Under the pieces are notes generated by a model, which made no database searches, was not told where the DNA came from, and saw only the letters and a program-made list of their open reading frames with translations. A DNA stretch of 64,000 nt from Chloropicon primus (lineage: Eukaryota). This document shows, piece after piece, positions 2,564 through 60,098 of this stretch (its first letter is position 1; every line of letters begins with the position of its first letter). A program made the translations under genes and the position numbers. The stretch is from the NCBI GenBank assembly GCA_023205875.1, contig CP060760.1, positions 558,001 through 622,000 on the forward strand. Direction: 5' to 3'.

Positions 2564-3220
2564 CTGTCTCCAGGAAGCGCGCGCCTCCTGTGGTTTGTCC
2601 CTGACGTGGATGCCCAGGGGAAGACACCACACCTCTTCAACAAACTTTTGTCCAACACCCAGAGCGCCAAACGCGTCAAGCGACCTACCAAACGCAAGCC
2701 CGTGAGACGACCTTTCGCTCAGGTACCCTCCCCTCCTCCTCTCCTCGTCTCCCTCGCCGCCACCGTCCTCGACAAGGTGGCCCCCCGTCGAATACTTTTT
2801 CCTTTCCCTCGCGTCCTTCCCAGCTTCGTTTCCTCGACCACTCCGTGCACCAAACGCGCCGAGTAAACGATCAATGGAAAGCCCGGGAGACGTAGTTTCG
2901 CTCCGTTCACCTCGTTTCCTATTCCCGCCCTCGACCTTCCTTGCGTTTCCTTCGTTGTGTCCCTCTCTCTCGCGCGCGCAGCGCAGCGCCAAACCCAAAG
3001 CGGTGCTCGAGAGAGAGAGAGAGAGAGAGCAGAGGGGGAGAGGTGTCGGGGGTTGAGACGAGGGCGAGGAGGACGGAGGGGGTGAGGGAGTGAGGCGAAA
3101 GGTTTCGTCGCGAGTTTTGGATTGGTTACCTCGGTCGACGGGTTTGTTTTGTTTTGGGAGGGAGAGGACGGGGAGAGGACGGGGAGGGAAAGGCAGGAGA
3201 GGTGGGGTTGAGGTTGAAGG

Positions 3221-4045
3221 ATGGAGGAGGAGGGAGGGAAGAGGGTGGAGAGGGTTCGGGTTGACAAGTCCGGACGGCAGCTGTGGCTCGTCAAGGTACC
3301 GAAATCGGTGGACAAAGTCTGGAGGACGACGATGGAGGAGGCCGGCGACGGGGAAGGGATAGAGGTTGGGGAAGTCACGATCATTCAGAGCGACCAAGGG
3401 CAAGAGAGCACGAGCGCCGGGCAATTCAAGCTGGACCTGAGCGAGAGGCCCGGGTCAGACCGGATTCCACTGCATTACACGATGATTCCCTCGGTTTCCT
3501 CCGGGCAGGAGCTTATGTGCATGCACGCTCTCGCGCAGGACAGGGGAGCGGCGAGTGCCGGAGAGGCGACGAACCCAGCGATAGAGGGGCGAGTTGGCCA
3601 GCAGTTTGCCCTGCAGCCGAAGATGGGTCGCGAGTATTTCGCGATGTCGAGGCAGCGCTCGAAGCAGCAAGCCGGCGTGAGCGGAGGCGTGAGCAAGCCG
3701 AGGGTCATCAGCAGGGTTCACTTGAGCGACACCAGCGTCGTGCAGATGAGCAAGGAAGCCGTGCCGCTCCCCGTGTCGTACGTGGGAGGAGCCAAGTACA
3801 AGAGGGAGCATGGAAGGAAGCAGTCGGACTACAAGAGGGTCAAGATGGAAAACAAGGAGTCTCTCATGAACTGGCTGTTCGAGCTGTTCCAGAGGGAGCC
3901 GTACTGGCGCTTCGACGCCATTCAGAAGACGACGAATCAGCCCACGCGATTCCTCATGGACGTCCTGAGGGAGGTTGCCACCAAGGTGTTGGACGGCGAT
4001 CACCGTGGCAAGTGGGAGCTGAAGGACAAGTACAGGTCGTCCTAA
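3221..4045 (+). CDS. Transcription factor IIF beta subunit (RAP30/Tfg2)
   Basis: N-terminal LWLVKVPK motif; C-terminal winged helix LFELFQREPYW...TNQP..FL..VL.EVA...GKWELKDKY. Confidence 0.88.
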   Translation: MEEEGGKRVERVRVDKSGRQLWLVKVPKSVDKVWRTTMEEAGDGEGIEVGEVTIIQSDQGQESTSAGQFKLDLSERPGSDRIPLHYTMIPSVSSGQELMCMHALAQDRGAASAGEATNPAIEGRVGQQFALQPKMGREYFAMSRQRSKQQAGVSGGVSKPRVISRVHLSDTSVVQMSKEAVPLPVSYVGGAKYKREHGRKQSDYKRVKMENKESLMNWLFELFQREPYWRFDAIQKTTNQPTRFLMDVLREVATKVLDGDHRGKWELKDKYRSS

Positions 4046-4221
4046 CACGCCTCGCTGTGTGCACAGAGAGAGAGAGAGAGAGAGAGAGAGGGGAGAGGGA
4101 CTTTGAGGGACTTTGAGGAAGCGAAAGGTGAAGGAAAGACGCCTAAAATATATATGTAGTGAAGTGGAAACACGCGCTCCCACTTGCTTGGTACTCGCAG
4201 GGTCGTCCTTACTGGTAACGA

Positions 4222-5723
4222 TTACTGATCCAGGTTGCTCCCGAAAACGATGGGGTGGCAGCTCAGGTCCCGGAGGTTGACCAGCACGCACGTCTGCTTC
4301 TCCGCGAAGGAGGGGAGGGAGATCAGCCTCACCCTTTGGCCTTCCTTGCCCTCCGCGATCCCGGTCTCCAGGCTCGGCTGGTTGCCGGCAAAGTACACGT
4401 GGGGGCAGTCCTTGAGGACGAACGGGTCCTGGTCCACGAAAGGAAAGCAGGGCAGGGTGTCCGGGGCGGTTGGGGCGGAGTGGCACCACTCCAGGGTGGC
4501 GGCCATCGCTCCCAGCCTGTCCTCGTGCGCGACGTACTTCATCACGTCGTCGATGTTCTGGCCGCTCGTTCCCAGGAAGCTCACCCCGTCCACCTCAAAG
4601 CCGTGGGGGTTGGTCACCCTCCCCACGTTGGAGTAGCAGGTGGTGCTAGGCAGGAGGCACCTGTGCAGGGGCTGCTGAGGCATGGACACGTTGCAGGGAT
4701 CGGTGGGGCCCGGCATGACGTCGACCGGCATGCTCGACGCGATCTGGGTCAGGAACATGTCCGCCTCCCTGAGCCCCCCGACGCCCCGGCTCGCCTCCCT
4801 CTTGTCCTCCCCCATGGGGACCTGGCCCACCTCCTTGAGGGTGTTCCCCACCACGACCATCCTCGTGATCTTTCCCGCCAGCCCGTCGTAGTCCCCGAGC
4901 GCCCCCGTCACGTAGTCCGCCAGCAGCTGCAGGGGGAGGGGGTCCCGCTTCTCGTCCCCAAGCCCGAGGCCCGACACCAGGGCCACGTACTTGGCCTCCG
5001 AGTCCGGGACGACGGGCTCCTGCCTCGCCGGCCCGGGAAGGCAGACCTCCTTCACCACGAAGTTGCCCCCCTCCTCCTCCGTGCCCCTGACCGCGACGCA
5101 CACGCCCGAGACGAAGTCCGCCGGGTCGAGAGAGTCGCCCTTGCACCCCAAGTTCATCCTCGCCCCCTCGTCCTCCAGCACGAGAGTGTCGTCGCCAGAG
5201 ACGAACTTGGTCGAGGCCAGGTGCGTCTCCAGGCTCTTGTCCTTGGCGTACTCGTCCAGGACGCTCGGCTTCAGCTTCATGTTCTTGTACACCGTCCCGA
5301 CCACCGCGCACTCCACCCCGAGCTCCACCTCCAGGATCTTCCTCACCGGCACGGTGGGCCACTTGGCCTTCACCTTGTCCAAGACCAGCGGCGAAAGGTT
5401 CTGCAGCCTCTGGAAGTACAGGTGAGCGTACTGCTTGTTGTACACCCTGTCTCCCACGAGGTACGCGTCGTCCCGGCACTTGTAACTCCCGCGGGAGCGC
5501 TCCACGCCGCCGCCTTCGACATCATCAGCCTGTGACAGACCGAGGATGGCCAAGTCAGAAAGCGTTCGTGTTGGAGAGAGAGGGAGAGAGGGAGAGAGGG
5601 AGGGAGAGGGGGGGAGGGTCTCACCTGGGTGGTCGTGGCGAAGGGAAGGTCGGCGGCGGTCCTTGACCCCGCCTCCTCACGCACGACTTGGGTGTGAAAG
5701 AGCCTCGCGCTCGCGCCGGTCAT
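4222..5723 (-). CDS. POLD2: DNA polymerase delta small subunit, intron 5530-5624
   Basis: QYAHLYFQRL, LEDEGAR, MPGPTDP, PQQPLH, GTSGQN, APTAPDTL, CPHVYFAGNQ; upstream exon joins in frame. Confidence 0.95.
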
Positions 5724-5915
5724 GGTGGTTTGTGATTTTTGGAGAGGAAAAAAAATGGCGGGAATTTCATCGCAAGAGAAACGTCATGTTCTTGTACACC
5801 ACCGAAAGTCCGTGGGCTTGAACGAGAATTCTCGAGGCACACTCACACCCTACGCACCACACGCACCACACACTTCGCTTCGGGTCGCTTCGTTTCGGTG
5901 GTGTGACATCACACC

Positions 5916-6803
5916 ATGAGGCCTGGGTGTGGCGTGTTCGTGCTGGACACGAGCCCGTGGTCGGGCGTCCGAGACCAGAGGCTGAACATTGGGGGGCGCG
6001 AGGGGGTCGAGACGAGGCTGGCGAGCGAGGTGGTGTCGATGAAGCTCCTGTGCAGCTCCTGGATGCCTCAGAGGGTGGGGGTTGTGCACATGGGGGCCTC
6101 CAATGCGTCCTGGGGGCTGGAGCCCACGACGCATTGGAGGTCCACGGACGACCCGGGGCTGGTCGAGGAGAACCCCGCGCTGGAGCTGGGCCTCCTCCAC
6201 CGCTACGGGGCGAGCTCGGAGCCCGGACCCCCGCCGGGGGCGCCGGACCCCCGCCGGATCTCGAGGGCCCTCCGCCTCGGCCTGGAGGCTCTGAGGGCCC
6301 AGGACGGGTGGAAGCAGATCACGGTGCTCCTCTGCAGCCCGCTTCCGGGCCTGGGGGAGACGGAGGCAGACCTCCTGGCGGTGTTGCGGGAGCTGCGGGA
6401 GAACGGGGTGGAGACCGACTTTGTCCTCCACCCGAGCGTGTACAGCCCGAGCTTCGACCAGATTCTGAAGTTGCAGCAGGAGAGCCCGACCCCGAGCCCG
6501 GAGTCGTCGGGCGACGAGGGCGGCGACCGGGTCGACCGCATCAGGAGCGCGGACGGGGACGTGGAGACCCTGAGCAGCGTGTTCGGCCTCGACCTGCGAA
6601 ACAACCTGGTGCAACAGAATTTCGTCAAGACCCTCGCGCTGTACGGCGACCAGTACTTTAGCGGGGTATCCGAGCGAGCGAACCTGCTCACGAATTGGAG
6701 CATGTGCTTCCCGGAGTTCGATCCCACACAGAGCATGCCGCACGTCGTCCAGATGTACCCGTGGCTCGGCACGCTGAGTGAACCCCCCCCCCCCGAGAAC
6801 TGA
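5916..6803 (+). CDS. Hypothetical protein, possible vWA-like domain (Ku N-terminal-like)
   Basis: 295-aa ORF with coding-like composition; VFVLDTS and RVGVVHMG strands suggest a vWA fold; ends just after a C12 run. Confidence 0.5.
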   Translation: MRPGCGVFVLDTSPWSGVRDQRLNIGGREGVETRLASEVVSMKLLCSSWMPQRVGVVHMGASNASWGLEPTTHWRSTDDPGLVEENPALELGLLHRYGASSEPGPPPGAPDPRRISRALRLGLEALRAQDGWKQITVLLCSPLPGLGETEADLLAVLRELRENGVETDFVLHPSVYSPSFDQILKLQQESPTPSPESSGDEGGDRVDRIRSADGDVETLSSVFGLDLRNNLVQQNFVKTLALYGDQYFSGVSERANLLTNWSMCFPEFDPTQSMPHVVQMYPWLGTLSEPPPPEN

Positions 6804-6815
6804 GAGTTATTTAAG

Positions 6816-6974
6816 GCCAAGCGCGGCGGCCCTCCATTTTTCCCTTTAGGAAGGCCGGACCCCGCGCGCGCACACACACACAAGAGAAAAAAATGCCAAG
6901 CGCGGCGGCCCTCCATTTTTCCCTTTAGGAAGGCCGGACCCCGCGCGCGCACACACACACAAGAGAAAAAAATG
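6816..6974. repeat. Perfect 79-bp tandem duplication (2 copies)
   Basis: GCCAAGCGCGGCGGCCCTCC...CAAGAGAAAAAAAT starts at 6816 and again at 6895. Confidence 0.95.
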
Positions 6975-6997
6975 GACTTTTCATTATAAACACGTGA

Positions 6998-7900: not shown

Positions 7901-8678
7901 CGTGCCGGGTCCCTCGGTCCCGCTGCTCTTCGCCAGGTCTCCCCTCTCGCGACCGACCGACGAGGCGCACAAGACCTCTCTCTGTGGGCCACAAGAGCGT
8001 TATCCGATCCAGTCCAGTCCAAAGGTGGAGGAGGGAGCCAGGCCAATGCGGGGGGGGGAGGGGGCATGCTGGGCACAGGTGGCCACATCACGACCTCCTC
8101 ATCCCCTTCCTCCTCTTTCCTTCCAAGCAGGAAGCTGCTCACCCTCAACTGGATCGATGCAAGGGGTAGTAGGATGATGCAAAGGGGTGAGGTGGGTTGT
8201 GGTGAACCTTGAGATGATGGTGGCGCTGGAAGTTTGGTTCGATCAGGGTGACGGACGCTCTCCCTCCCCATCCCCCGCTTTCTCGGTGCCGGGTGGTGCC
8301 AGTGCCCTCCTTGGGAGGCCAGGGAGCGACGCGATGGAGGGAGAATACGACAGCGACAACGACAACGACAACGACGGGCGTGTGTGTGTGTGTGTGGGTG
8401 TGTGGAAGCCCAGCTGGGGAGGCAGCGATGGGATTGAGGGACGACCCACTGCTTTCCCACAATCACTCCAATTGCTGGTCCAATTCACCTTGGGTCTCGG
8501 AGAACAACCAGTCCGGTGTGGAGAGGCGAGGACGTCGTGCCCACCCGGCGTTCGAGTAGGCGGGGACCAAGCTTCTTTCTCGCGAGGGGGATGGAGGGCG
8601 TGCAGATGCGCGCGCACGCCGATGCCTGCATACTTCCTACAAATCGATGAACCACCTTCTGATTAACACAAAGAATTA

Positions 8679-9225
8679 TTACAGCTGTTCCAGAACAATC
8701 TGAGCAGAGGTTTGGAGCGCCATTCGTTCACGTTCAAGCAGCAGAGGAAGAGAGAAAGAGGAGGCCGGATTGTGTCAATTCAGTGCTCGGCTTCGCCACG
8801 AGCCGCAGTAGCAGTCGAAGAGGCCGGAGAAAGGGACTCACCTGTGAGCAAAACCCGCAAAGCTTCACCTCACTATACAAGTGCGTCGGCTTATAGTCTC
8901 GAAGTTTCCTCTTGGCTGCTTCGACTCCGAACTCGGCCAAGATGGAAAGAACGCACTTCCTCGTGGCGACGCCTGGCAGGTTCTCTATCAGAAACCACAA
9001 CTGCGTTGGCGAGCGCGCAGCAGCAGCAGCAGCAACAGGAGGACCCAATAGAAGAATGGAATAGAAGCAGACATCACGACGAGCGTCAGTTCGCTTCTTC
9101 TTTTGTGTTCCCACCATGGGGAAACTCAAGTTTGCTTTTCCACTTACCCCGCAAAGCTCACACTGCTTGATAGGCTTCGCCGTGTGCAGTCTCTTCTCAA
9201 ACCAGGGGCCCTTCTCCTTGTTCAT
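8679..9225 (-). CDS. Small (85 aa) 3-exon CxxC...CxxC putative zinc-binding protein; exons 9225-9148, 9000-8842, 8699-8679
   Basis: Donors GTAAGT and GTGAGT with CAG acceptors, all phase 0; product MNKEKG...CELCG-LWFLIENLPGV...LYSEVKLCGFCSQ-IVLEQL*; an extra 5' exon is possible. Confidence 0.65.
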
Positions 9226-11295
9226 CTTGGACCACCTCTCTTCACTCGATTTGCCAGGAGCACAATCGTCTTTCAGAACCCAATGGCCATCAAATTATGG
9301 ATAGGACCGGCTGCCTCTGTGAAGCCAAGAGAAGAGCGAACGACTTGGTCGTCTTGCCTTGTCTCCCGTGTCCAGCAACCCAGAGGCGAGAAGAGATGAA
9401 CCAGCAGCAGGAGCAACAGCAGCAGGATGACTTGACTGGGCAAAGATGGTGATGTCAAAGAAAGAGAAAGGAAGAGAGAGAGAGAAGAAGAGGAAAGGGG
9501 AGAGGGGAGTTCTTCTTCAGTGTTCTTCCGTTTGGGTTAACACCGAAAAAAACGATTCTTTGTCTTTCCTTCCCCTTCCTCTCTCCGGGATCGAAGGACG
9601 TTGACCTTCCCCCTGGAGTCAATTAGAATGGTTTTAGGGAGGCGGGTGTTGTTCTTCCCTGTCTGGTTCTCGTGAAAGGCCAAGGAGAGTGCCTTCTTCT
9701 TCTTCTCCTTCTTCTCTCCCTTTGCTTTGGTATCCTCGTCATCATTAGGAGGCCTTCCCTCTCACAAAAGGTCTACTACACGACCACGCCACTTCCTGGA
9801 GGAGGGAGTGGCAAAACAAAACGTGCCTCTTTCCCGGTCAGAGGAAGGGGCTCAAGACGGAGCTAAGGAGAGGGGAACGACAAACGACAAAACGACAAAA
9901 GGGGAGAGAACCGAACAACGCGAACAATAATCCTGGCCTGTTAATTGAAGCCCAAGACGATTTTTTTTCTCCAAGATCCTAGGGTTTTTTCTCCTTCCTC
10001 CTCTTCCTTCTTTCCCTTGTGCTGCAAGAGTCTTTTGCCTGTAACGTTTGATCCCCATCGAGGTAATAAAGGTACGCACCTCGTCTTGCTGTTGTATCCA
10101 TCTCCTCTTCGCCCTTGCTTTTCCTCTCCCTCCTTCCCGAGTCCTGCAGAAGGACTTGACTCCTTCATGCATGACCCTCTCTCCTCTTTGTGTTTTCCAT
10201 CGTAAAACCATCGCAGGATTTTTTCACTCCCCTCTCTTGAGGCCTTCTTTGTCAAAGAACAAGAACAAGAACAAGAACAAGAGAAAGGAGAAAGGAGAAG
10301 TCTTCGGCTTCCTCTTTTCCTTTTCCTTTGATTGTCTTCACGAACACGAACACAAAGTTGTGTGTGTGTGTGTTTCCCCTTGCTCTGGGTCTTTCACTAA
10401 TCCCTTTGTCTTCACGAAAGAAAGAAAGAAAGAAAGAAAGGAGTCTTCCTGGGAACCCACGAAACAACAGGGTCGTTCGTTCGTCGTTGTTGTTGTTTCC
10501 TGTCTTCGTCTGTGTTTCTTTGTTTTCTTCTCTTTCTTCTCTTTCTTTCTTTCTTTCTTTCCCTTGAAAGAACCCTTGGCCTCCTCCCTTTGTGTGTCAG
10601 AGACCAACAGCGGCAGGCGTTGTATCAGTCCGTGTTACAAACCGACTGGCGCCTTGCGACTGTCAGCAACACAGGGGAACACGGAGCAGCGGAGCTCAAA
10701 GACGTCAAGTAGCGTCTGAGCCCTTGCTTTTGTGACGCAGTCAAACCAAGGGCATTATTCGATACCGAAGCCTTGGAGAATTTACGACCCCCAAAAAGAG
10801 TGAGTGTTGCAACTGAAGCCGCTTTTGACAGCCTGCCTTTGTCAAAAGGCTTGCCCATTGTTGTGAATTTGGAAGCCCAAAGCGACGGGGAGGGAGGACC
10901 TGCTCGCCGTGCAGAGGGAGAGACTTTTGCGAAATTGCAAAGGAGTCTTGCGAATTATATATACGCGCGTGTTCTGACTTTTTTTGCGGTGTTCGTGGTC
11001 CTATTCTGCACCTTTTTTTTACCAGCTTGTCTTTTGTTCGTGACACGGGCAGTGACCGACCGACCCGGAGACAAAGCGAGGGAGGGAAGCGCCTGTGACT
11101 ATGCTACACGAGTAGCCCGCTAGACAATTTGTTGAGAGCGAGCAGGACAAGGCCAACAACCTCTGGCATCTTTTCTCGGGACCAAACTCTTGTGTGATCA
11201 GGTCAAAGGGAAGAGAGACATCAAGGTTTTGTTGGTTGCTTGTGTATATATAGAGAGAGAGCGAGAGAGGACTTGAGAGAGAGAGAGAGACAAGC

Positions 11296-15655: not shown

Positions 15656-16362
15656 GCTTCTCTGCTTCACCCCTCGCCCTCTTCACAAACACTTCCCACA
15701 ACCAATACCGTCGTCAAAACCTTCGACCGAACGATCAAACGAAAAACCGCGAGACGCACTTTCGCTGCTTCAACCTTTCTCCGCCGCTTCGGTTCCACCT
15801 CGTACGCCGTTCCCACAGAAAGCAACAACCCACTCGAGCCCTGCAGCTGCCCTGCTGTGAATGGATCTTCAGCACGCCTCTTCCAAGCCAATCCTGGCGC
15901 CAAAATGTTCAAGTGAAGGATCAAACCAAAGACCGTGAGACGTACTTTCGTTTCGTGATGCTACCTTTCCTTCTTTCCGAGTCGCGCGCCCTCTGTTCCT
16001 ATCGAAAGCAACCCAACCCCGGACCTCCGCGCAACGCTCTGATCGATCGACTGGACGGCGGCTCAACCCCTTTAGGGGAAAATCCAAAATCGACGTCCGC
16101 GGACGAGGGAGGGAGTGGCTCGACTCGACACGAACGAGGACGCCTAGGACGGCAGGGGGCGCAACGAGGGCGAAGGGATTGACCTTGGGATAGAACACCC
16201 CGCGATCTTTCGTTTGATCCCTCGCTTGAACGGTTTGGCGGCTCATCGAGTAAGATCGAAGGGGGTTGGAGCGAGGCGAGGAGGCGAAGGAGATTATTGT
16301 TTTGTGGAGTTTGATCCCTGGTTTGGGATCCTTTGTGTGAGGGCCAAGGAGAGGGGGTCAGG

Positions 16363-17226: not shown

Positions 17227-17366
17227 GCCACCCTCTTCGCAGATGGATCAACTTGAGCGCTCGCACGCGCGCGCTAGAGAGAGAGCAAAGTGATGATGTA
17301 ACGTAACGTGTATATATACCCTATAGTGTGGAGTCCTTTGAAAAAGAAGCATACTTTTGACCACCT

Positions 17367-18110
17367 TTAAGAATTGAAGTCGACGTGAGGCCCGTACAGC
17401 GCAGTCCCCCGCGGCTGAACCAACATGTACGGTTGAACACCACGCAAAGCGTTCGAGTTCCTCGATCCAGAGACCTCACTTCCTCCGGAGATGTTGTTCC
17501 AAAAGAAGGAGGAGGCGCTCTCTCTCGTCGCCTCCTTCCCGAGAGCGGGAGACACTTCCATGTGGCTCCCGCTGGCAGTGGTGGGCAAAACAACGACGCT
17601 GACCGGCCCAGCCTCGACAGCGTACGGCTTGGACGCAGCTGACGCCGCGGTCGCCTTGGTCGCAACAGCACCGCTCGTCCCAGACCTCCTCTCCTGCACC
17701 TCCTTCTCAAGCTGAAGAAGGAGATCCTGTGGAAGATCCTGACTTTGCTGCTGCTTCTCCAGCACTCGTTTCTCCATGCTCCTTCTCTTCGACGCCTTCT
17801 CCGCCTTCCTCTTGCTGCTCCTCGCCTCGGCCTCCCGCCTCCTCGTGTCCTTCGCCGCCTTCCGGACCGAACGCATCGGCATCTCCTCCGGCTCCTCGTC
17901 GTCCACACCATCGCTCTCCTCCTCGGCGTCGTCAAACACGGCTAACCCCTCTCCCTCTCCCTCCTCCTCCCCACGCGAACTAGGCTGGTCCCCCTCCTCC
18001 TCCTCGTTGTCCGAGTCGAACTTCACGTGCTTCCGCTTCCGACTTCCAACCCTTCCGCACCCATCCTCGGTCTCCAGTGCCGCCTTGGCTGCCCTCGTGC
18101 GTCGCACCAT
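17367..18110 (-). CDS. Charged hypothetical protein (possibly NOL7/Bud21-like nucleolar)
   Basis: KRKHVKF, acidic tract, DEEPEE, basic coiled coil, LPQDLL motif; family assignment is weak. Confidence 0.5.
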   Translation of the reverse strand: MVRRTRAAKAALETEDGCGRVGSRKRKHVKFDSDNEEEEGDQPSSRGEEEGEGEGLAVFDDAEEESDGVDDEEPEEMPMRSVRKAAKDTRRREAEARSSKRKAEKASKRRSMEKRVLEKQQQSQDLPQDLLLQLEKEVQERRSGTSGAVATKATAASAASKPYAVEAGPVSVVVLPTTASGSHMEVSPALGKEATRESASSFFWNNISGGSEVSGSRNSNALRGVQPYMLVQPRGTALYGPHVDFNS

Positions 18111-18439
18111 CTCAGCAAACCACGAACTGTATTCGAACGAACAGTCGAAAGCCCGTGAGACGACGCTTCGTCCAGCAACACCCTCTCCCCCTCCAACTCC
18201 CTTCTCCGCCCTCCACTTTGCCCGGAGTAGACGCCTCTCTCTCTCTCTCTCTCTCTCTGAAGCCCCTCGTCGTCCGTCGAAGAGAACACGAAGCATGACG
18301 GCTCTGGAGTGAGGAGGGAGATTGCTTTGCGGAGAGCAAGCAGGTCGTAAGGAGACTGTGTATAAAAATGTAGATACAAGGAGATTCTGTGGTCTGTGGT
18401 CTGTGCCCTTGCCTCTTCTCATCATCGTTGACAGTCAAA

Positions 18440-20038: not shown

Positions 20039-20156
20039 CGAGTTTCAACGACGAGGACGTTTGCGGTGCGGGAGGGGAGGGACTCAAGGCGAAACCTCGT
20101 CGCGAGAGCTTTCCATCGGTACCTCGCGCGATCGTTTTGACCCACGGGAAGGTTTG
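20039..20156 (-). repeat. Dispersed ~117-bp intergenic repeat, near-identical to 49574-49690
   Basis: Reverse complement aligns to 49574-49690 with about 5 mismatches by eye. Confidence 0.9.
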
Positions 20157-20202
20157 GGCTTTCGATGGATACGAGGCTTTGAGATGAGAACGAGTTGAGA
20201 AG

Positions 20203-23207: not shown

Positions 23208-23834
23208 CTTCCCTGCAAGTGCTCGATCCCTTCTCCTGGCGCTGTGTCTCCGTCACTCGCGAAAGCACCAGAGTCCCGAGCAAAAGAAACACCAACGAGA
23301 AGATCCTCCTCCTGCCAGTCTCCTCCTCGCCCTCTTCCTCGCCCTCCTCCTCCTCCTCGTCCCAACTCCCTCCCTTCCTTCCTTCCCCTGGTGGATCCGG
23401 CAATCCTTCTCCTCTCCAGTTGGAGCACCAAGGCCAACCCCCTCAAGCGAGGTATCGTGCGAAAGCCCGTGAGACGTACTATCGATCGAACACCTCTTCC
23501 CCTTCCGTCCCTTCCCTCCTTGGTCCTCCGCTCCTTCCGACGCACGCCTCCTGCCACGTCGCACGCACGCTCCGCCAATGAGGCAGCACTTTCAGAAAAC
23601 TGATCCGAGAGGCCAAGGCGAAGGCGCGCGCGTGGACGGACGAGGCGGATTGGGTCGGTTGGTCGGTTTGTCTTCGTGATCCTCACGCACTGGATTCTCC
23701 CGATTCGACTCGAGCATCGCATACTTGTTCCGCTTCTCGTCTCGTTTCAAGGAGTTGCGTTGCGCATCGTTGCGGTTTGCGGTTTCTCGGCATCGTTTGG
23801 TGTTGGCTTGGGAGGAGGAGGCCAGCGGAGGAGG

Positions 23835-26515: not shown

Positions 26516-27102
26516 TCGGATAAGACCAAGACCAAAACCAAAACGCAGGAGGGAGCCGAGCCGTTGTCTGCAAACGAAACCGACGCGACCGAGCGTTACG
26601 ACTGAAAGTTCACTTCCTCTACCCAATAATCACGACGTCCTCCTCTGTCTCTGTCTCTTGTCTCGATGCAATGCAATGGGGATGGCAATCGTGGCGTTGG
26701 CAATGGAGTAGTGGCCTTCAGTTGCAGTGGAAACGTAATAGAATGCCAAGCACAACAAGCAAGGCAGAGGATGAAATCGAGAGGGTTCTCTCCCAACGAA
26801 CGACCTGACTGGCCGTAACGTAACGTGCGCTCCAATGAAGCGAAGCGACAGACAGACAGGAGAACAACCCAGTGACCTCCTGGCGTCACGCGGGTTTTGT
26901 GTTTTGTGGTCAGCAGCAGATCCTGCTGGAGGGGAACGAAGGAGATCTGGAGGAAGGAGGGCAAGGAAGGACGAGGTCGAGCGCCAAGCGGGGGGAGGAG
27001 GGAAGCGTGGATTGTCCTCAATCGAAAGTACGCCTCGAGATCTTTCGCCTGATACCTCACTTGGACGGTGGTCCTCGATGGTGTGGTTTGTTGTTTGAGA
27101 AT

Positions 27103-27104: not shown

Positions 27105-27139
<35 letters not shown>

Positions 27140-39980: not shown

Positions 39981-40065
<85 letters not shown>

Positions 40066-40633: not shown

Positions 40634-41368
40634 TCACAGCTCGAGCTTCTTCCTGGAAACGAGGACGCCGTCATTGTCGGCGTACACATATTCGCCAGGT
40701 CTGAAGGTGACCCCGGCGAAGGAGACGTCGACGTCCCTGAGCCCCGGATCCCTCTTGCTGCTCTTGAGAGGGTGCGTTCCTATGGCCTTCACCCCTATGT
40801 CCATCCTTCCAATGTCCTCGCTGTCCCTGCAGCAGCCGTTGATGATGATGCCTTCCCAGCCGTTCTTCGCGCCCATCTCAGCAAGCATGTCGCCCAGAAC
40901 CGCGCACCTCGTGCTCGCCCCGGCGTCCACCACCAGCACCCTCCCCTTGCCCTCCTCCTCCAGGGCCTTCCTCACCAATGGGTTGTTCTCGAAGCACTTG
41001 ACTGTGGAGATTGGACCAAAGAACCGCCTCTTGGAACCGTAATCTCGAAAGTAATTCACGCTTGCCGCCTCGACTGCACGCGGCACGATCGCGTCCACCG
41101 GATCCGGCATGTGCACGTCGCAGAGGTCCGCCGTCCCCATCCTCTCCGCATCCGGCGGAGGCGTCAACGGAGCCTTGTACGTCGTCCCCATCATCCTCGC
41201 CCTCCCTCCGATGGTGGTCGCGGAGGATGACTTTCCCCCCTCCTGAAACAGAACGGCGACAGGGACAGGAGACGCAGGAGGAAAGCCGAGGACGCCGGAC
41301 GCCCTGATCAAGCCGACCCATCTCCCCCCCGCCGCACCCCTCACCATCAGACCACTCAGCCCAGACAT
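40634..41368 (-). CDS. RraA-like / HMG aldolase
   Basis: [32 protein letters not shown]. Confidence 0.9.
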
Positions 41369-41426
41369 CAAAACGTTCTCTCGCTCCCGCCAAAAAAAGT
41401 GCTGCTGGTGGCGGGAAGGGAGAGAG

Positions 41427-42089
41427 ATGGCGGCGAGGGGCGAGGCATCGAGGGTGAAGCTCTTTTATTTTGACATTCGCGGGAAGGGTGCGCCGATAAG
41501 GTGGCTCGCGGCTCAGACGGGCATAGAGTTCGAGGATGTGAGGGTGAAACGGGAGGAGTTTCATGCCATGAGGGACAAGGGTCTGACCCCGTTCGGGCAG
41601 CTTCCGGTCGCCGAGTTCTACGACAAGGACAACAACCTGCTCTGCAGGATCGCCCAAATGAGGGCGATTCTCAGGTACATGGCTCGCTCTAGCGGGAACA
41701 AGGGGTACTCTTCTGACCTCGCGCAGGCTGCGGTGATCGATTCCTTCCTCGATTTCGAGGAGGACGTCTTCAACGCGATGCGTTCGTCCATCTTTCCCGC
41801 GCGAATTGGACTCCCAGAGTACGCGAGCGACGAGGCGAAGGAAGCCATGAGGCGGAAGGTTGCAGAGGAGGTGTTGACCCCCAAGCTGGCGTACCTCATT
41901 CAGGCGCTGGAAAACTCAAAGTCCGGCTGGATCGCGGGGGGAGACCTCTCGATAGCCGACCTCGCTTTGGGCTCCTCCCTCATGTGGCTGAACGGCGGGG
42001 TGGTGGACGGAGTGCCTGCGGGATACTTGGATGGCAAGTCACCCCTTCTCAAGGAGTATATTGCCAGGTTCGCCGCCGAGTTCTCCTAA
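41427..42089 (+). CDS. Glutathione S-transferase (sigma-like)
   Basis: [31 protein letters not shown]. Confidence 0.9.
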
Positions 42090-43518: not shown

Positions 43519-43977
43519 CGTCGCCCTCAGCTGAATCCCCCGAGGGGCCAAAACACCTTGTCCTCCTTGTTGTCCTCCACGATGCCTCTCCGCGATTCCA
43601 CCAACCTTCATTCCCTTGCGAGAGGGTCAATCGAAAGCTCGAGAGAAAACAAACAAACAAAAAATAAATAAGAATGCTTTCGATCACCAGCACCTCCCCT
43701 GTCCTCGCTCTCGTCCTCGTCCTCGTCGCCGCGTTCCGTTCCGTTCCTCTCTCTCGTCCTCGCCCTCTGTCGCTCTCTCGTCCTTCTCTGGTTCCCGCGC
43801 AAAACAGAAACAGTGTTGGAGGTTTTCCCCTGTTGGTGGGATTCCAGTGTATACCAGTTTGGTCACACCCAAAGGACAACCCACTAAGCGTTTTTTTCGT
43901 GTTCTCACTTGCTGGACAAGGCAAATCTATAGTTACGAGGAGTTACGAGGAGGGCAGCGAGTGAAACCCTACCGGTC

Positions 43978-45941
43978 ATGGCGCGATCAGGGAAGCGCCG
44001 TAAGAAAAAGGAGAAGCAGGGGAGTGGCTCGACGAGTTCCACAAGGAGGTCGCACTCTGGCGAGAGTCATGCTCAGGGCGCTTCGAAGTCGGGGCAGGAG
44101 TCTCCGACGACGGAGCGGCCGTTACTTCCGTTCTGGAATCAGGGCTTGCAGTTGCTCTACGCGTTGTGCCTGCTTCCTACCGCGGACGACCCCGCCTCTG
44201 CGGGTGAGGGTTCGAGCTCGTCAGGCAAGCCTCGCAAGAAGCCTCGCAAGAAGGGCAAGAAGAAGAACAAGAAGAAGGGTAAGAAGAAGAAGAACAAGAG
44301 GGGGAAGAAAGCAGGGAAGCAGCCGGGTGGCTTGGCGGACGACAGCGTGAAGAAGACCTGGTTCTCATCGATCAAGAGAGAACTTGAAGAGGTAAAGTGT
44401 CCGAAGACGGGATGGAGGTCGTGCTTGAACCTTCCAGAAGATTCTGTGGTATCCGTGGAGACATTGCAGCCGCCCGCCAAAAGGAAGAGGGGGCAGAAGC
44501 TGAAGACCTCCAAGCTATTGTCGGAGCGAACGGTGATACGGACGAGGAAGCTTAGGATGCGCTTGAACCCTGAGCAGGCGAGAACACTTTGCAACTGGAT
44601 GGGAGCTGCGCGTTTCACATACAACAAGTGTTTGGAGGCGGTCAAGAAGGAGGGTTTTCCGCTGGTTTGGACCGTCCTGCTGGACAGATTTGTGACGGCC
44701 AAACCGCGACGCCCTGAGGTCTTTGAGGGCCTGGAGAAAGAGCTGAAAGAAATCCAATGCTCTCCACGGCCATGGACAAAACAGGAGGCAGAGCTTTTCG
44801 CATCCAAGTGGGCAAGGACCGGGACTACGTTAGCGGGGCCTTTGTGAATCAGAAGCATCCTTGGCTGAAGGAAACCCCCTGTGCCATCAGACAAGCTGCC
44901 GTGCGAAGTCTCATCAAGGCATGGGATTCGAACACCGCGAAGCAGGAAGCGATGAAGGAGCGCGGCGAGAAGAAGGGGCACCGCTTCGTTCTCAAGTATC
45001 GTCAACGTCAGCAACCGAGCTCTTGGACTATTGAAATTGATGCAAGAGAGTTAAAGAACGTGGAGACGATCGAAAGGCCAAACACGAGGCACAAGGATGA
45101 TACGAAGCACAAGAAACGACGCAAGTGGACCAAGCTGGAGGTGTTCAAGAAGAAGATGGCCGGCGGGCCCCTGTACTTGACGGAGGAGATCCCCGGGGGC
45201 AAGATCGAGGGTGCCGTGAAGATCACAAGAAATCGCCTTGGGCAGTTCCACATGCACATTCCCATCGCGACGCCATGGGATCGCCTGCCACCCCTGAAGC
45301 CTGAGAACAAGCGGAAGGTTGTCGCCCTGGATCCGGGAGTCAGGACCTTTCAGACGTCGTACTCGCCGCAAGAAGGCGTCGGGGAGTATGCCAAGGGCGA
45401 GCGAGGCTTCGCGAGGCTGTTCAACCTCTGCTGGAGGATTGATGAGATCATTTCCGAGCGCAAAGACCCAAAGGTGAAGCTCCCTTACCTCGACCGCCGC
45501 GACTTGAAGAGACAGCAATACGCCTGCATGGAGAAAATTCGAGGTCTGACGAACGAGCTTCACAAAAAGGTAGCCAACGATCTATGCAGGAGGTTCGACA
45601 CAATCCTCCTCCCGGAGTTCAAGTCCCAAGACATGGTGAAGAAGAACAACAACGGGAGACGCCGAGTGATCAGGAAGAAGACGGCTCGCACGCTCTTGAC
45701 GTTGAGGCACTATGCGTTCAGAACGTTCTTGGCTTCCAAGGTGCTCTTGCACGGCAGTGAGCTGGCGATCGTGACGGAGGAGTACACCTCCAAGACCTGT
45801 GGCAGGTGCGGACACATCAAGGACAACCTGGGTGGAGCAGAGGTGTACAAGTGCCAGAAGTGTGGCTTCAAGTGCGGTCGGGATGTGAACGGGGCACGCA
45901 ACGTCCTTCTCAAGCACTTGCGTCAACCAAAAAGTGTGTAA
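43978..45941 (+). mobile_element. Fanzor2 (IS607-type TnpB-derived) RNA-guided nuclease gene, split across two frames (43978-44847 and 44757-45941)
   Basis: PFWN and WFS N-terminal motifs, RTRKLRMRLNPEQ...WMGAARFTYN (OrfB HTH), WLKETP..IR..AV, RuvC-I ALDPGVRTF, ILLPEF, VTEEYTSKTCGRC, CQKC, RuvC-III RDVNGARN. Confidence 0.9.
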
Positions 45942-46465: not shown

Positions 46466-46724
46466 CCAAGAACAATCTCTTCCTGTCATCGACCTTCGCT
46501 TTCCTTCCTGGTTCCTCCTCTCCTCCTCTCTTTGTTTCTTTCTCTTCATTTTCTCCCTTCCGCTGAACCATCATAACGGCCCGAGGCCACGAGGGCGAAC
46601 ACAAGAGGGAGGAGAACGAGAGAAACGAAGAGGACGGGAGCGCGCGGAGGAGGAAAAGAGAGAGAAGGAGGACCGAACAGGCGAAACGTTCGTCTCTTGC
46701 TCTTTCGAAAGAGCCGTCGCAACC

Positions 46725-48568
46725 ATGGTGACGAGGTGGGGACTTTGCTGGGGGTTGGTCTGCCTGTGGCTCGGAGGGGTCACTGATACTGTTGTTGCGA
46801 CCAAGTACCACGCTGGCAGGGGCGAGGAAGAATTGGACACGATCTTCAGCCACGGGGCGCTCAACGAGTACCACCTTCAGGTCGGAAAGAGCCAATGGGA
46901 ATGGCTCAACACTCACGAGCTCCTCGAGGAGTACGTCGAAGGAAACCTTTCGTTCAAGAACTTCAACACCCCGGGAGGCGTTGGATCAGAAGAGTTGTTT
47001 GAGAAGGTGGGCATTCGCTACAAAGGGTCGAAGGGCAGTTTAGAGTATTGCTTTTCCAATGCCACGTCGGGTAACGAAGGATCGTCCCAGGTAATAATTC
47101 CTTCCCTCTCTCGTCCGAAAACTCTTTCTCTCTCTCTTGACTGACACCGCCGTTCGGCAACTCGTGCGATAGTGGAACAAGCGCTTGTGCAAAAAGCTGT
47201 CGATCAAGCTGAGCTTTGACAAGTACGACGACAGGGGCAGGTTTTATGATCAGAAGAAGCTCAATCTTCATGCGTAAGTGGGATCTCTTGATCGCTCGCA
47301 TCCCAGCCCTCGCCTGACTTGCCTTCCTTCCGTCCGTCGCTTCGGCGGTTGCTTCCAGCATGCAGAATGACCCTTCCTTGATGCGGGAGTGCCTAGCTTA
47401 CCACCTGTACCGGTCGATGGGACTCAAAGTATCTCGCTGTGCGCACGCCAAAGTTTTCGTCAATGGCAGGTATGAAGGCGTCTACCTCGCCGTGGAGAAT
47501 GTCGACTCGCGGTTCTTGGAACACCACTTTGGCGAGAAGGAGGGAGTTTTGTTCAAGGAGAAATGGCCAGGCATCGGCGAGGACGCGAATCACGCGGACT
47601 ACTTCTTGGAGGGAGTGAAGAACAGGAAAAGCTCGACAACCAAGAGCGATATCGAGCCAATGCTCAAGTTCTCTCAGAAACTTTGGGACGCGAAGGACTC
47701 GGACGAGGTGGCTCACGCATTACACAAGTACTGGAATCTGGAATCGATCACTCGGGTGCTGGCGGTTGCCTCGGTTATCGACGACTGGGACTCGTTCTTC
47801 ACCTTCTTCCCCAGCGACCCGAATCGTCACCAAGATCCAAGCAACGGACAGAGGCGCTTCAATCACAACTTTTACGTCTACCAAGATGGAGGAGGCAAAC
47901 TTAACCTCATTCACTGGGACACGGATCTGACTTTCAGTGAGTACGGATCGGTGCTGGAATTATTCTTCGGTTTGCCGGCTTGGAACGTGCCATTATGCGA
48001 GCCTCACAACAGGAGGTCGACGACATGCACGCCTTGCAAGGAGTACTTGCCGTACAACGTGTCGCAGGGGTCGCCGACGAACGGTGGAATATTGCCAGGG
48101 GCGGGGTGCGATAAGATCCTCAATTTCATCGCGACGGACCCGGCGACCAGGGAGGGTTACTTGAAGGACTCCTGGTACTTCCTTCAACGCGTCTTCATCC
48201 CAAGCGAGCTGGAAAAGGTGGTTCGGGCTTGGCAAGCTCGCGGGCTGGAGGAAGCACACCGGTGCGACCCGAACTATCCGGCGGGCAAGGGCATATTTCC
48301 GGACCCCAGCCAGAACGGAACGGCGGTGAATTGGAAGGAGGAGGTCCAAAGCCTTCTGGGCACGATAAGGCAAGAGTACAAATTGGCCTTGGAGAGGACC
48401 AACCCAGTGTACCAGCCGCACGTTCCTGACCGGAAGAAGATTGGGAAGGTCTTCAAGTGCGTCACGGACTGCTCCAAGTTCATGTCAAGACACGACATCA
48501 AGTCGCTCTACACTTGCTACAGCATCTGCCTCCACGAGGTTTCACCATTCGCCAGCTCGCAGGTGTAA
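46725..48568 (+). CDS. Secreted CotH-family kinase-like protein (2 introns; boundaries of the first uncertain)
   Basis: Signal peptide, VGIRYKG, SIKLSFDKY, DPSLMRECLAY, VFVNG.Y.GVYLAVE.VD, DDWDS, NHNFYVY, WDTDLTF. Confidence 0.85.
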
Positions 48569-48586
48569 AGCATTAATGCATTACAA

Positions 48587-49369: not shown

Positions 49370-49753
49370 CCTCCCAGGATGCCCTTCCCCAAAACCTTCC
49401 CGTGGGCCAAAACGATCGCGCGAGGCACCGATGGAAAGCTCTCGCGACGAGGTTTTGATCTGAGCAAACTCAAACCTCCCGCACCGCCAACGTCCTTGTC
49501 GTTGAACCCCTTCCTTCCTTCCTTCCTTCCGCTCTCCGTCCCTCCGTTCCCTCAGATCAGTTTCCCTTGCCTCAAACCTTCCCGTGGGTCAAAACGATCG
49601 CGCGAGGTACCGATGGAAAGCTCTCGTGACGAAGTTTTGCCTGGTGTCCCTCCCCTCCCGCACCGCAAACGTCCTCGTCGTTGAAACTCGACTTATCCAA
49701 ACTTATCCACAACTTGATCCACAACGAGAGGTCAGAGAAGCAAGTGGTGAGAG

Positions 49754-50464: not shown

Positions 50465-50578
50465 CCACCGCTGTTGTGTGTGACTAAAACTAAGACTTTC
50501 TTTTGTTTTTCGTTTTGTTCTGCATTACCTGTACGAATAGAAAATAATTAGAAAAAGAATCCGCGTCCTCCACCCCCC

Positions 50579-52321: not shown

Positions 52322-52768
52322 GGTTTCCCTCTCCCTCTCGCCGCCTTTGGCTGCTTCAGGACAAGGCGAGACACCAAGCGAGTGAACCCCGTCCGATGAC
52401 CCACCAACCAAAAGCTCTTGAGACGTGCTCTCGCGACGTGAGCCTCTCCACTCTCCCCTCGTCCTCCCTCGCGGCCGATCCGGCCGATCCCCTCCCTCAA
52501 CCTGACGCGCTCCTCGCTCCAGCGCTTCTCAGCCAGGAGTTCATTATCTTCTAGGAGCAGCACCAAGGCCAAGGTGAGTGAGCGGACGAGGACGAGGACG
52601 AGTGGTGCAGGGGGAGGACGGGTCACCGACGGACGCATCGTCTCCTCTGTATCTTTCGATGGACACCTCGCTTGCTCGATGAGACGCACAAGAGAGAGTG
52701 TGGCGTTCTGAAAGTGCATCTGAATAATCTTCTAGGAGCAACAACTGGAGGGCGCACAAAGGTGGAGG

Positions 52769-53344: not shown

Positions 53345-53485
53345 CCGGAGGGGCTCGCACGGTGCGTGTGAAACCAAAAAGGCGATTTGTCGATTTGTGT
53401 CATGTATTCTAGAAAAGACAAGAGTGTTACTTACGGTAGGTAACCTACCCATCCCAAAAAAAGAAAGATCTGTCTGTTCTGCCGC

Positions 53486-54922: not shown

Positions 54923-55763
54923 CCTATCTATCTCTCGGCCTGCCTCCAGCGAGCGAGCGACGCCACTTGACGTGGTATGTGCCCTCCCTCGGAAAGCGAA
55001 GGCTCCGGAGCGTCAAGACGAGTCAAGTTCGGTACCAATCGAAAGACCGCGAGACGTACTTTCGCACAACCACCCTCTCCCTCCCCTTGTGCCCCCTCCA
55101 CTCGACGACCGGAGCCGCCAACCAACTCGAGCGTTACCCACTCGAGCGTTAATGTTAAGCCCTTCGAGCTAGGGTTTCCTCCGAACCCCAGAAACCCTAA
55201 CTCCACAAGATGTGCGTTTTTAGTGTACCGAATACCGTACACTTGTACTAGGGTTTTTTTCCCGCCAACGACGGGATTTGTACAGGAAAATAATTATTCC
55301 GTCGAATAATAAAGTTTTGAGGCGCGGAGACCACTGGTGTGAGGTGGACTCGGTGCGGCACGTTGTCGCGAGGAGTTTGGGAACGAGGGAGGTCGAGGGT
55401 CGTGTCGAGGTCAGGAGGACGCGAAATATTGTCTCACGGGCTTTCGATAGACCCCTCGGTTGTTGGATTCGGTGCGTGGGAAGTTGGGGAAAAGTCGCGG
55501 AGTGGGGTGGACGCTCTAGGAGGAGGAGACCTCGAGGAGGAGAGGGGAGGGAGAGGCCCCGAGGGCTCGAGGGGGAGAGGAAGGCCCCGGCGTCGAGGAG
55601 GGAGGGACGGGAGGCCTGACTCGAAGTCCTTTGACGACCGCGTCGGAGGCGTCGGGCGACGCGAACGGGAGGGGGAAGCAGCCCCGTGAGGTTGGTCTGA
55701 GCTGGCACAGCTCTCGGACGTCTAGTACAGAGAGGGCGCCAGAAGGACTGGTGGAAGAGTCGA

Positions 55764-57812: not shown

Positions 57813-57918
57813 CGGAATGCGGCGAGAGCGGAGCGAGAAGAGGGAGGGAGGGTGTGCCTGGACTTTGTTTTCTGTTTTAGAGAAAAACGTTCTTTTCCGG
57901 AGAGTTTAACTTTGTGAT

Positions 57919-59076
57919 TTACATCCATCGCTTCTTGGTATTCAAGTGGAAGGTTTTCTTGTCGACTCTGCCCGGGTTGTACTTGCAAGGCCCCGGCGCG
58001 ACACCGAGCTGATATATGCCGCTCGAGGCACTCCGGTCCGTGGAGCTAATAAACGCGCTGTTCGCCCCCTTCGCGTGCACCATGTGGTCGCTGTGCGCGT
58101 ACTGCCCAGGCCCTGGCGAGATGCTCCTGCCAACCTTGGGCTGCACAGGCCTGCCAAAACGGTCTGTCGCCGTCTTCCCAAAGATGCTGCTGTACTTTCC
58201 GAATTTCATCTTTCCGCTCATGTCGATATCTTCAACCCCGATCTCGTACGTGCCCGGCCCCGGCCCCGGCCCCGACCTTTGGTTCACCTCGTTCACCGCC
58301 ACCTTCAGGACAGCCTTCTCGGGATCCTTGTTCATCTTGGTGGAGCCAACAACTTTTCCCTGCTGCCCCTTCTCTGGCGAGCTGTACCTCCCCGTGGAAG
58401 ACTTGAAGGTCGTGTACTTCCTCTCCTTCACGGTGAAGGAGTCTGGTAGAGTGTATTGCCCGACGCTCGCTCCTTCGGAGGACTTGGACCCGAACCGCTT
58501 GGTCGAGCTCTTGAAGGCCGAGATGGAGGACTTGGTCGCCAGCGAGCTCTGCGGGGAGAGGCCGTTGAGGTAGTCGTAAGCACCCGGGCCAGGGGTGAAC
58601 TTAGTCGCCTGCTTCTTGTGCGGCACGAGGTTCTCCACGGACTTGGAAAACGCCGCAGTGGTCGCAGACCGGTTGAAGTACTTGTCGTCCTTCATGTGGA
58701 TCCCCGAGCGCTGGTTGTACTCGCCGGGGCCTGGAATGTACCGCGAGGGGTGCCCGAGTTTCGTCCCGAACCGTGTGTCCTTGGACAGGAAGCCCGAGCA
58801 GTAACCTTTGCAGGACATCGAGCCCGCGTTGTTCACCAGGGTCGTCGGGTTATGGTAGTACCCTGGGCCAGGAAGGTCGTTGTTCCGCTTGTTGAACCGC
58901 GTCGTCCTGCTGTTGAACCCGTCCTTCTCCCTGTAAGGCAAAAGAATCGTCACGTAGGACGACGGTATCGAGGACTTGGGGTGAGCCCCCTCCACCCTTT
59001 CCCACGCATTCCCTCGCTTGAGGTTGCCCACGAACGTCCCGCCCTTGCGACTGCTCGGCGGCTTCGTGTTGGCCAT
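57919..59076 (-). CDS. SHIPPO/PGP-repeat protein (ODF3/STPG-like)
   Basis: Repeated PGPG.Y units with AF.S...RF motifs. Confidence 0.82.
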   Translation of the reverse strand: MANTKPPSSRKGGTFVGNLKRGNAWERVEGAHPKSSIPSSYVTILLPYREKDGFNSRTTRFNKRNNDLPGPGYYHNPTTLVNNAGSMSCKGYCSGFLSKDTRFGTKLGHPSRYIPGPGEYNQRSGIHMKDDKYFNRSATTAAFSKSVENLVPHKKQATKFTPGPGAYDYLNGLSPQSSLATKSSISAFKSSTKRFGSKSSEGASVGQYTLPDSFTVKERKYTTFKSSTGRYSSPEKGQQGKVVGSTKMNKDPEKAVLKVAVNEVNQRSGPGPGPGTYEIGVEDIDMSGKMKFGKYSSIFGKTATDRFGRPVQPKVGRSISPGPGQYAHSDHMVHAKGANSAFISSTDRSASSGIYQLGVAPGPCKYNPGRVDKKTFHLNTKKRWM

Positions 59077-60098
59077 CACCTCCAATGATCACCACGGCCT
59101 CAAACCAGTCGGTCAGACACGGACTCCCTCAAGCTTGAGGAGCAAAGTACTTGCTGTGCTGCTGCTGCTGTTGTGGCTTCGACTGGACTAGAACATAACT
59201 CGTTGAGGCAAAGCAAAACTTCGTGCGTTTGGTGGAAACAAGTGCTGGAACACAAGTGGCACCAAGTCAAAGCTTCCCTTGCCCTCGGCTCGGACAATTT
59301 CTCATGCAAAGGTCCGACCTTTGCGAAGCCTTCTGAATGGGGATGGGAGGGGAGGCTCCTTCGCTTCGCTCTTCCGTCCTCGCTTTGCGCGAAAGTCAAC
59401 CGTTGATCTTTGTCAAACGTCATCGTCGAACGGGGGAGGAAGGGATAAAAACCCCGTTCGAGGAAGGACGTTTGAGATTGAGTCTTTTGGTCGACGGAAC
59501 CCAACGATGGTCTCCGCTCTACACGGCGTTGTACCCCACGAAACGGAGCAAGAGGGGTACTCATCGAAGAAGGACAAGGTCTAGTTCTTATTTCTATCGC
59601 TCATGTTTGAGTTGAGTGCGTGCTTTGTCGTCAACCTTGTGTCAAAGTTGCCCAAGTCCTGCAAGTTTGGAGAATTCTGTAACTTCATGGAGTAAACCGT
59701 TCACGATTTGTTTCAGGTAAAGTAACGTCGTTTTCGGAGATCCCTCCACGAGAGGAAAGGGAGTCCAAGGGGAGTCCAAGGGGCGTCGTACAGGACGCGT
59801 GGTGACAGGTTGAGGACCTTGGAGCGGAGGCCAACGCTTTAGCGGAGGCATTGGGGACGGGTACCGAGGAGGGGATCATTGGAAAGGAGTTTCCGCGAAA
59901 GCGCGTCTCGAGGGCTTTCGATTGGTACCGAACTTGACCGGTTTCGTTGTCGGGTGGAGGAGACAGGCCCGAGGAGAAGAAGACTACGAGGACCGAAGCC
60001 GTTGTCCAGGATGGCAACGTGAGCTGCAGAAGCAGAGCAGCAGGAAGCGACAGAACGGACTTGACAAGGAAGAGAGTGAGTGAGCGAAGAACTTCGAG

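Follow-up and report, generated by a model that had tools for sequence, protein, structure and literature searches.

A rigid 52-bp element antisense to gene starts in Chloropicon primus, a candidate protein-read leader module on the scale of the nucleosome

This study deals with an element recurring at the 5' ends of unrelated genes in a stretch of 64,000 nucleotides from Chloropicon primus (NCBI GenBank assembly GCA_023205875.1, contig CP060760.1, positions 558,001 to 622,000 of the forward strand), which is referred to as the window and numbered from its first letter. The element is about 52 bp long, rigid and fixed in orientation, and likely resides in the transcribed leader of about half of the genes. 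Judged from the sequence, we assign a probability of roughly one half to the reading that it would act as double-stranded DNA downstream of the transcription start, recognised by a protein and tied to the spacing of the +1 and +2 nucleosomes, and that it would spread by local duplication and ectopic copying.

Extent, sequence and number of copies

Based on the information content, the element extends from about -24 to +27 relative to the A of ATCGAAAG, the anchor by which the copies are named below. A length of about 35 bp, proposed in an earlier note on this DNA, is therefore too short. On the strand used in that note, the consensus reads roughly YCAAAMCG-TCAAG-CGAGG-TACCAATCGAAAG-CCCGYGAGACG-TACTTTCGC. 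All 13 sites listed there proved to be real, with the minus-strand coordinates corresponding to the low end of the element. Together with 12 added copies (anchors 503, 3122, 16214, 27049, 28801, 28976, 31604, 31790, 43630, 46709, 52407 and 52660) this results in 25 copies, besides an extra, very weak one at 211 (+). These and all following counts cover the 64-kb window of C. primus alone.

The iterated matrix returned 25 sites above 8 bits in the window. One of them, at 58181 (9.6 bits, in a coding region), was removed, and the split copy 43630 was entered separately, which restored the total to 25. With a leave-group-out matrix, for which the relatives of a copy were omitted, 23 of the 25 copies reached at least 12 bits, 31604 and 43630 lying below this value. 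With the matrix from all 25 copies, the best non-copy site in the whole window was the weak one at 211 with 8.1 bits, followed by 3.5 bits. Above 18 bits, 20 sites were counted in the window, a number inflated by training, compared to none in ten 64-kb Markov simulations. The CpG density noticed earlier was confirmed by an observed/expected ratio of 1.69 in the element cores, compared to 0.89 in the window. Isolated ATCGAAAG half-sites were observed adjoining full copies at 15996-16009 (+) and 20156-20172 (-).

The copies diverge considerably in sequence and hardly at all in spacing. Among 19 representatives, the pairwise core identity showed a mean of 57% (range 37-85%), and 23 of the 24 nhmmer matches at E<1e-3 were gap-free, the hidden Markov model having been built from 19 of these copies. 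Of 26 copies, 19, 19, 26, 23 and 20 had the respective one of the five sub-blocks at offset 0, and a search of the window for displaced halves gave nothing above 12.2 bits. Relative to the consensus, 47 transitions and 96 transversions were counted; the best-kept CpGs changed chiefly to CC or GG, and a decay from CG to TG or CA was absent. According to this substitution pattern, the element is not a methylated, decaying repeat.

Position and orientation relative to genes

Each of the 25 copies runs antisense to a gene and is at most 320 bp from its ATG, in a zone that comprises 9% of the strand-by-position space. Viewed from the genes, 20 of the 36 called ones have an antisense copy in the 350 bp that precede the ATG, and the five sense-strand matches near ATGs are each a copy assigned to the divergent neighbour. 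No copy was located in the convergent gaps or coding regions of the window, except for the removed match at 58181. The left block is degraded in the four copies that have an ATG overlapping it or directly next to it (18144, 31604, 43630 and 46709), as well as in 211 and 52407, while in copy 3122 it is displaced by a 1-bp insertion. The description of the element as a lineage-restricted 5'-end feature, too long for one ordinary transcription factor site, is supported by position, rigidity and gene counts.

Copies facing each other are separated by 248, 253, 290, 292 and 410 bp, one of these pairs including the weak copy at 211. Between facing copies, the strand bias changes from C-rich to G-rich near the midpoint, as expected for bidirectional promoters. 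The widest facing gap (55065-55421) holds an AT-rich tract as well as three words which we take to be telobox-like and a presumably E2F-like one. Two divergent pairs, 5723-5916 and 41368-41427 (193 and 59 bp between the ATGs), are free of the element, the latter carrying words that we assume to be E2F-like; these pairs suggest a second promoter class.

Transcription of the copies

Four public runs over 14.1-34.0 kb were used. They are not recorded as RNA and were judged to be spliced RNA because of their GT..AG joints. Among the 32 of 535 pieces listed, contigs cross at least four of the 12 copies in this region without a joint, whereas uncovered copies carry no evidential weight. The crossed copies are 18144 (contig 17319-18226, run X2), 23458 (contigs to 23526 in three runs, two of which extend over two convergent genes), 28801 (run X2, to 28828) and 31604 (contig 31516-31780, run X4). 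Copy 20116 showed partial RNA cover, and for copy 33545 a cover in run X2 from about 33403 was deduced from depth and contig-end values. The RNA reaches at least 68 nt (23458), at least 82 nt (18144) and, by the same deduction, about 142 nt (33545) upstream of the anchor.

Since the RNA extends past the element on its upstream side, the covered copies are probably situated downstream of the transcription start, the simplest location being the 5' leader. The proposal of an upstream core promoter thus finds no support for the tested copies, through which RNA runs and continues for 68 to about 140 nt upstream. Similarly, the intergenic location claimed in the earlier note is correct if the ATG is taken as the reference, yet several copies are part of transcribed sequence.

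The common end of three runs at 23526 was rejected as a transcription start site: run X2 contains a near-identical paralogous leader, with the last difference 31 letters off, and an assembly branch would give the same end. A splice signal of a 5' untranslated region (UTR) intron was also discarded, as the contigs cross the covered copies unspliced and real GT..AG joints are found elsewhere; GTRCGT occurs in some copies only.

Distances between copies

Five pairs of neighbouring copies on the same strand are 183 bp (2691 and 2874), 186 bp (15738 and 15924), 175 bp (28801 and 28976), 186 bp (31604 and 31790) and 182 bp (49431 and 49613) apart, which under uniform spacing corresponds to a p of about 4e-6 to 4e-5. 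In every pair, each partner has the other as its top, tied-top or second match, and three subfamilies are represented among the pairs. Several separate local duplications thus arrived at one length.

At facing distances of 248-292 bp, the stretch between the copies measures 193-237 bp, too little to accommodate a pair of nucleosomes and an open region as well. The element would then be covered by the +1 nucleosome or would border the open region, and a second copy would follow one repeat further in. The chromatin-organising role considered earlier would fit both the tandem distances of 175-186 bp and the facing distances.

Copying between genes and alternative explanations

Copying between genes is apparent from a block of 118 bp in the TopoVIB leader (20039-20156, -), which contains copy 20116 and is 96% identical to a block 29 kb away in the leader of a DUF1997 gene (49573-49690), with copy 49613 at its centre. 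A block of 129 bp at copy 46709 is 74% identical to 28966-29094, and a subfamily other than that of the 118-bp block connects three unrelated genes. The copied blocks of 118-130 bp are centred on the element. In a tree that omitted copies 211 and 43630, two subfamilies were supported (95/95 and 96/94), and 13 of the 21 inner branches were unresolved. Loose ends at 31795 (three runs) and a variant contig 23396-23527 (variants at 23447-23496) show further transcribed copies, in near-identical leaders, elsewhere in the genome. Moreover, C. primus is richer in repeats (8-9%) than C. roscoffensis (5.5-6%) according to a table in PMC12301720.

These observations, from the copied blocks to the repeat content, are what a selfish or neutral short repeat would leave behind, that is, a non-autonomous element or a gene-conversion tract without function that is dispersed among 5' leaders, with the ~180 bp being its unit length. 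We regard this explanation as unlikely. Miniature inverted-repeat transposable elements (MITEs) would be recognised by terminal inverted repeats (TIRs), target site duplications (TSDs) and dispersal in both orientations away from promoters. At the edges of the youngest block, the one of 118 bp, TIRs were absent and the sole inverted pair was internal; TSDs were not seen by eye in the flanks of the blocks at 20116, 49613 and 49431, older copies not being assessable; and the window contains a single orientation, confined to gene starts. The flanks outside the core are not common to different subfamilies, and a neutral relic at 57% identity should show indels, of which hardly any were seen. With neither TIRs nor TSDs, no copies off gene starts, no CpG decay and few indels, a passive relic fits poorly. 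Of the mobile-element relic suggested in the earlier note, it can be retained that the copies were plainly duplicated.

A near-perfect tandem duplication of 79 bp (99%; 6813-6970) lies in a convergent gap and represents either a recent duplication or an assembly artefact. A TnpB/Fanzor-type gene (43978-45941, +) comprises HTH_OrfB_IS605 and Cas12f1-like TNB domains in two open reading frames (ORFs) with a frame change at about 44757-44847. At this locus no TIR was found (14-mers, at most two mismatches), hence no link to the element, and no viral relatives were found; Fanzor2 elements of C. primus have already been described (10.1101/2023.08.09.552727).

A 5' UTR element acting as RNA, either unstructured or as a CGAAAG/CUUUCG hairpin, and controlling translation or stability, for instance through an RNA-binding protein, could explain the strict orientation, the location in transcribed sequence and the ability of the consensus to pair. 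It has to be rated as rather improbable, as the structural tests gave no support, an unstructured RNA site being compatible with them. The inverted CGAAAG..CTTTCG frame pointed out earlier is real as a consensus, but pairing was realised in just 74% of the cells, which was equalled by 321 of 500 shuffles, and the covariation by 324 of 500. RNAalifold returned no structure for the element, and the folding z on the mRNA strand had a mean of 0.15. Covariance models of Rfam families (tRNA/SINE-like, snoRNA, riboswitch) had no match at any copy, two sub-threshold matches lying elsewhere. In addition, the spacing of 175-186 bp would be left unexplained by an RNA function.

An intrinsic nucleosome-positioning sequence with histones alone as readers is very improbable: although the tandem spacing of about one nucleosome repeat and the blocks centred on the element would suit it, the A/T blocks (WW/SS) recur every 8.5-9 bp, the power being lowest at 10 bp, and therefore constitute no classical histone-wrapping signal of 10-10.5 bp, and the near-invariant single bases and the palindrome suggest base-specific readout.

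Proposed mechanism

The preferred reading, i.e. a double-stranded element downstream of the start, would comprise the following steps. Transcription may begin in a purine-rich tract, about 70-140 nt ahead of the anchor. The element in the leader would be bound as double-stranded DNA by a putative sequence-specific protein or complex, a form of readout suggested by the fixed spacing, the inverted half-sites and the lack of RNA structure. The predicted footprint would include the two inverted CGAAAG half-sites and the left-hand blocks, and the bound protein would determine where the first nucleosome or nucleosomes lie. Tandem duplicates might be retained if their length equals one nucleosome repeat, and local duplication as well as ectopic conversion from leader to leader could generate new copies. 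More tentatively, and at odds that we consider rather low, the element might represent a genome-wide, sequence-encoded first-nucleosome module, read by protein over 52 bp behind the start of about half of the genes and spreading as nucleosome-sized leader blocks and in duplication steps of one nucleosome. If this were true and the window typical, copies on the order of thousands would be expected, and the chromatin architecture of promoters would behave as a spreading repeat family.

Several observations weigh against the preferred reading. The 36 gene starts were predicted from ORFs and Pfam, several of them unverified, and 16 of these genes have no copy. The second copies 28976 and 49613 are nearer to the ATG of the divergent gene, to which they are sense (147 and 141 bp), which weakens the antisense rule for second copies. 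The RNA contigs give neither strand nor start, and full cover by the listed pieces is limited to four of the 12 copies. On the nucleosome side, a search for independent sequence support for a repeat of ~180 bp in this alga was negative: coding regions showed no dinucleotide periodicity of 170-190 bp, the mild bump at 160-190 bp in the whole-window spectra was gone in coding-only shuffle tests, and the best CG period anchored on the element was 154 bp instead of 183 bp, with a nominal p of 0.022 for one among six features. The period of the A/T blocks mentioned above belongs here as well. Finally, recent copying would account for the similarity within subfamilies with no need for selection.

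Copies and neighbouring genes

The window is compact and intron-poor with a GC content of 58%; the published values (table in PMC12301720) are 57.5% (C. primus) and 60.4% (C. roscoffensis). Its genes include TFIIB, TFIIF-beta, Pol delta subunit 2, Nse1, TopoVIB and ERG4/24. For TFIIB, the sole match carrying a name was from C. roscoffensis, with 80% identity. The bit scores of the individual copies refer to the leave-group-out matrix.

At the left end, copy 503 (476-527, -; 22.4 bits) lies 77 bp from the ATG at 580 (+) and faces the weak copy at 211. The tandem copies 2691 (2667-2718, +; 48.4 bits) and 2874 (2850-2901, +; 45.6 bits) belong to the TFIIB gene (identified by Pfam; ATG 2563, -), the former at 128 bp. 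Copy 3122 (3094-3146, -; 17.3 bits), whose insertion was recognised by nhmmer, is situated 99 bp from the ATG of TFIIF-beta (3221, +). A region of about 3.3 kb (8000-11295) upstream of a cGMP-dependent kinase gene showed a lower GC content and no Pfam match in the tested ORFs, which is unusual for a compact genome. The tandem copies 15738 (15714-15765, +; 49.6 bits) and 15924 (15900-15951, +; 52.1 bits) follow, the first being 83 bp from the ATG of a WD40 gene (15655, -), and copy 16214 (16187-16238, -; 46.7 bits) is 149 bp from the ATG of Nse1 (16363, +). Copy 18144 (18120-18171, +; 28.9 bits) is only 34 bp from the ATG at 18110 (-), and copy 20116 (20089-20140, -; 40.9 bits) 87 bp from that of TopoVIB (20203, +). 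Copy 23458 (23434-23485, +; 49.4 bits) is assigned to a DUF1997 gene at a distance of 251 bp (ATG 23207, -).

Copy 27049 (27022-27073, -; 38.5 bits) precedes the ATG at 27141 (+) by 92 bp; a (GAT)n repeat at 27105-27140 forms an in-frame run of ATGs directly upstream of this likely start. The tandem copies 28801 (28777-28828, +; 13.7 bits), 74 bp from the ATG at 28727 (-), and 28976 (28952-29003, +; 15.1 bits) represent a CTCTTTCGAAAGAG-type subfamily. Copy 31604 (31580-31631, +) is half-erased, with its left block overlapping the ATG at 31596 (-) of a gene of the PALP family, cysteine-synthase-like; despite a score of -7.1 bits it shares 89% identity over 82 bp with its tandem partner 31790 (31766-31817, +; 12.1 bits). 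Copy 33545 (33518-33569, -; 38.9 bits) was found 129 bp from the ATG at 33674 (+) of a Na/H-exchanger-TrkA gene.

The split copy 43630 (43606-43685, +) is interrupted by an A-rich insertion, its right half at about 43656 scoring 10.3 bits, and is situated upstream of a class-V aminotransferase gene (-). In copy 46709 (46682-46733, -; 12.0 bits) the left block overlaps the ATG of a CotH gene (46725, +); this gene of the CotH-kinase family (46725-48568, +) has a signal-peptide-like start, here in a green alga. The second DUF1997 gene (ATG 49369, -) carries the tandem copies 49431 (49407-49458, +; 33.6 bits), at 62 bp, and 49613 (49589-49640, +; 39.8 bits). Two facing pairs follow: copy 52407 (52383-52434, +; 19.8 bits), 86 bp from the ATG of an ABC1-kinase gene (52321, -), with copy 52660 (52633-52684, -; 28.5 bits), 109 bp from the ATG at 52769 (+); and copy 55038 (55014-55065, +; 40.6 bits), 116 bp from the ATG of ERG4/ERG24 (54922, -), with copy 55448 (55421-55472, -; 44.3 bits), 316 bp from that of a PHD/IDM1-like gene (55764, +). 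The last copy, 59922 (59895-59946, -; 44.8 bits), lies 177 bp from the ATG at 60099 (+).

Comparison with known systems

In metagenomes one match to the element was obtained (10.5 bits outside a shorter pattern, the left part of which the search itself had partly fixed). It had neither a second copy nor a gene context and was taken as chance. Viral contigs yielded 0 and 17 matches, 16 of the latter being negative outside the pattern and one reaching 5.5 bits, and phage sequences yielded none. A protein-based search for Chloropicon DNA gave only archaeal TFB loci or nothing. Negatives from these collections say little on other Chloropicon species. In the accessible passages of the two Chloropicon genome papers the words 'promoter' and 'nucleosome' are absent, while 'motif' occurs once (RWP-RK proteins) and 0 times, respectively. 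In a search of their supplements, with files 13-20 of PMC6731263, which could be relevant, outside its scope, no such element turned up. Searches of the accessible full-text literature on Chloropicon (N6-methyladenine (6mA), nucleosome, promoter) and on algal downstream or promoter motifs listed no description, most subscription journals lying outside their scope, and the available part of PMC13344279 held nothing further bearing on the element. Altogether, the leader element is apparently undescribed, lineage-restricted and unusual in its rigidity, orientation and nucleosome-scale duplication.

The specification of the +1 nucleosome is generally explained by DNA shape, remodellers and short factor sites upstream. 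With a long, rigid downstream element at half of the genes of a free-living eukaryote, this question could be tested by editing one sequence. If the preferred reading is true, the element would also illustrate, in a living organism, how promoter elements are homogenised and spread when they are copied from gene to gene, and in this alga of ecological importance it could serve as a practical part for gene expression. Should it turn out to be just a repeat riding on leaders, the repeat family would still be undescribed and its rule of target and orientation unusual.

The downstream promoter element (DPE) and the motif ten element (MTE) are core promoter elements of 5-15 bp at about +18 to +33 that are read by TFIID. 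They resemble the present element in lying downstream of the transcription start, in their fixed orientation and in their sensitivity to spacing. Unlike them, the element comprises 52 bp and is tandemly repeated, and a distance of at least about 40 nt separates its near edge from the observed ends of the RNA; these lower bounds exceed the DPE distance, though contigs cannot give starts.

Reb1 and Abf1 in yeast as well as ZNF143 and CTCF in vertebrates bind sequence-specific sites at many unrelated genes and phase nucleosomes. The sites of such general regulatory factors differ from the element in being usually shorter and in lying in the nucleosome-depleted region upstream of the start, and we know of none that spread as 120-bp leader blocks.

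In prasinophytes and other chlorophytes, the parts of PMC12695648 and PMC12633428 available to us describe a phasing of 6mA and 5-methylcytosine in linkers over the first one or two nucleosome intervals that follow the transcription start. This concerns the same region in compact green-algal genomes. It is, however, a base modification without a long consensus, whereas in the element ApT occurs at no fixed place across all copies.

The CERP2/CELE2 elements of Caenorhabditis, MITE-derived m1m2 promoters bound by HIM-17, are, as far as described in the accessible part of PMC9757741, likewise repeat-like, with a composite motif of fixed spacing in a large proportion of promoters, belonging to unrelated genes, and an expansion within one lineage. 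Their motif pairs lie in the inverted repeats of the MITEs, and thousands of copies are found in closed chromatin off promoters, whereas the element has neither TIRs nor TSDs and no orphan in 64 kb, and occurs transcribed, in a single orientation and in tandems of 175-186 bp. Both would share the spread of promoter motifs with fixed spacing, and the co-option of CERP2/CELE2 may be considered the closest analogue found for the C. primus element.

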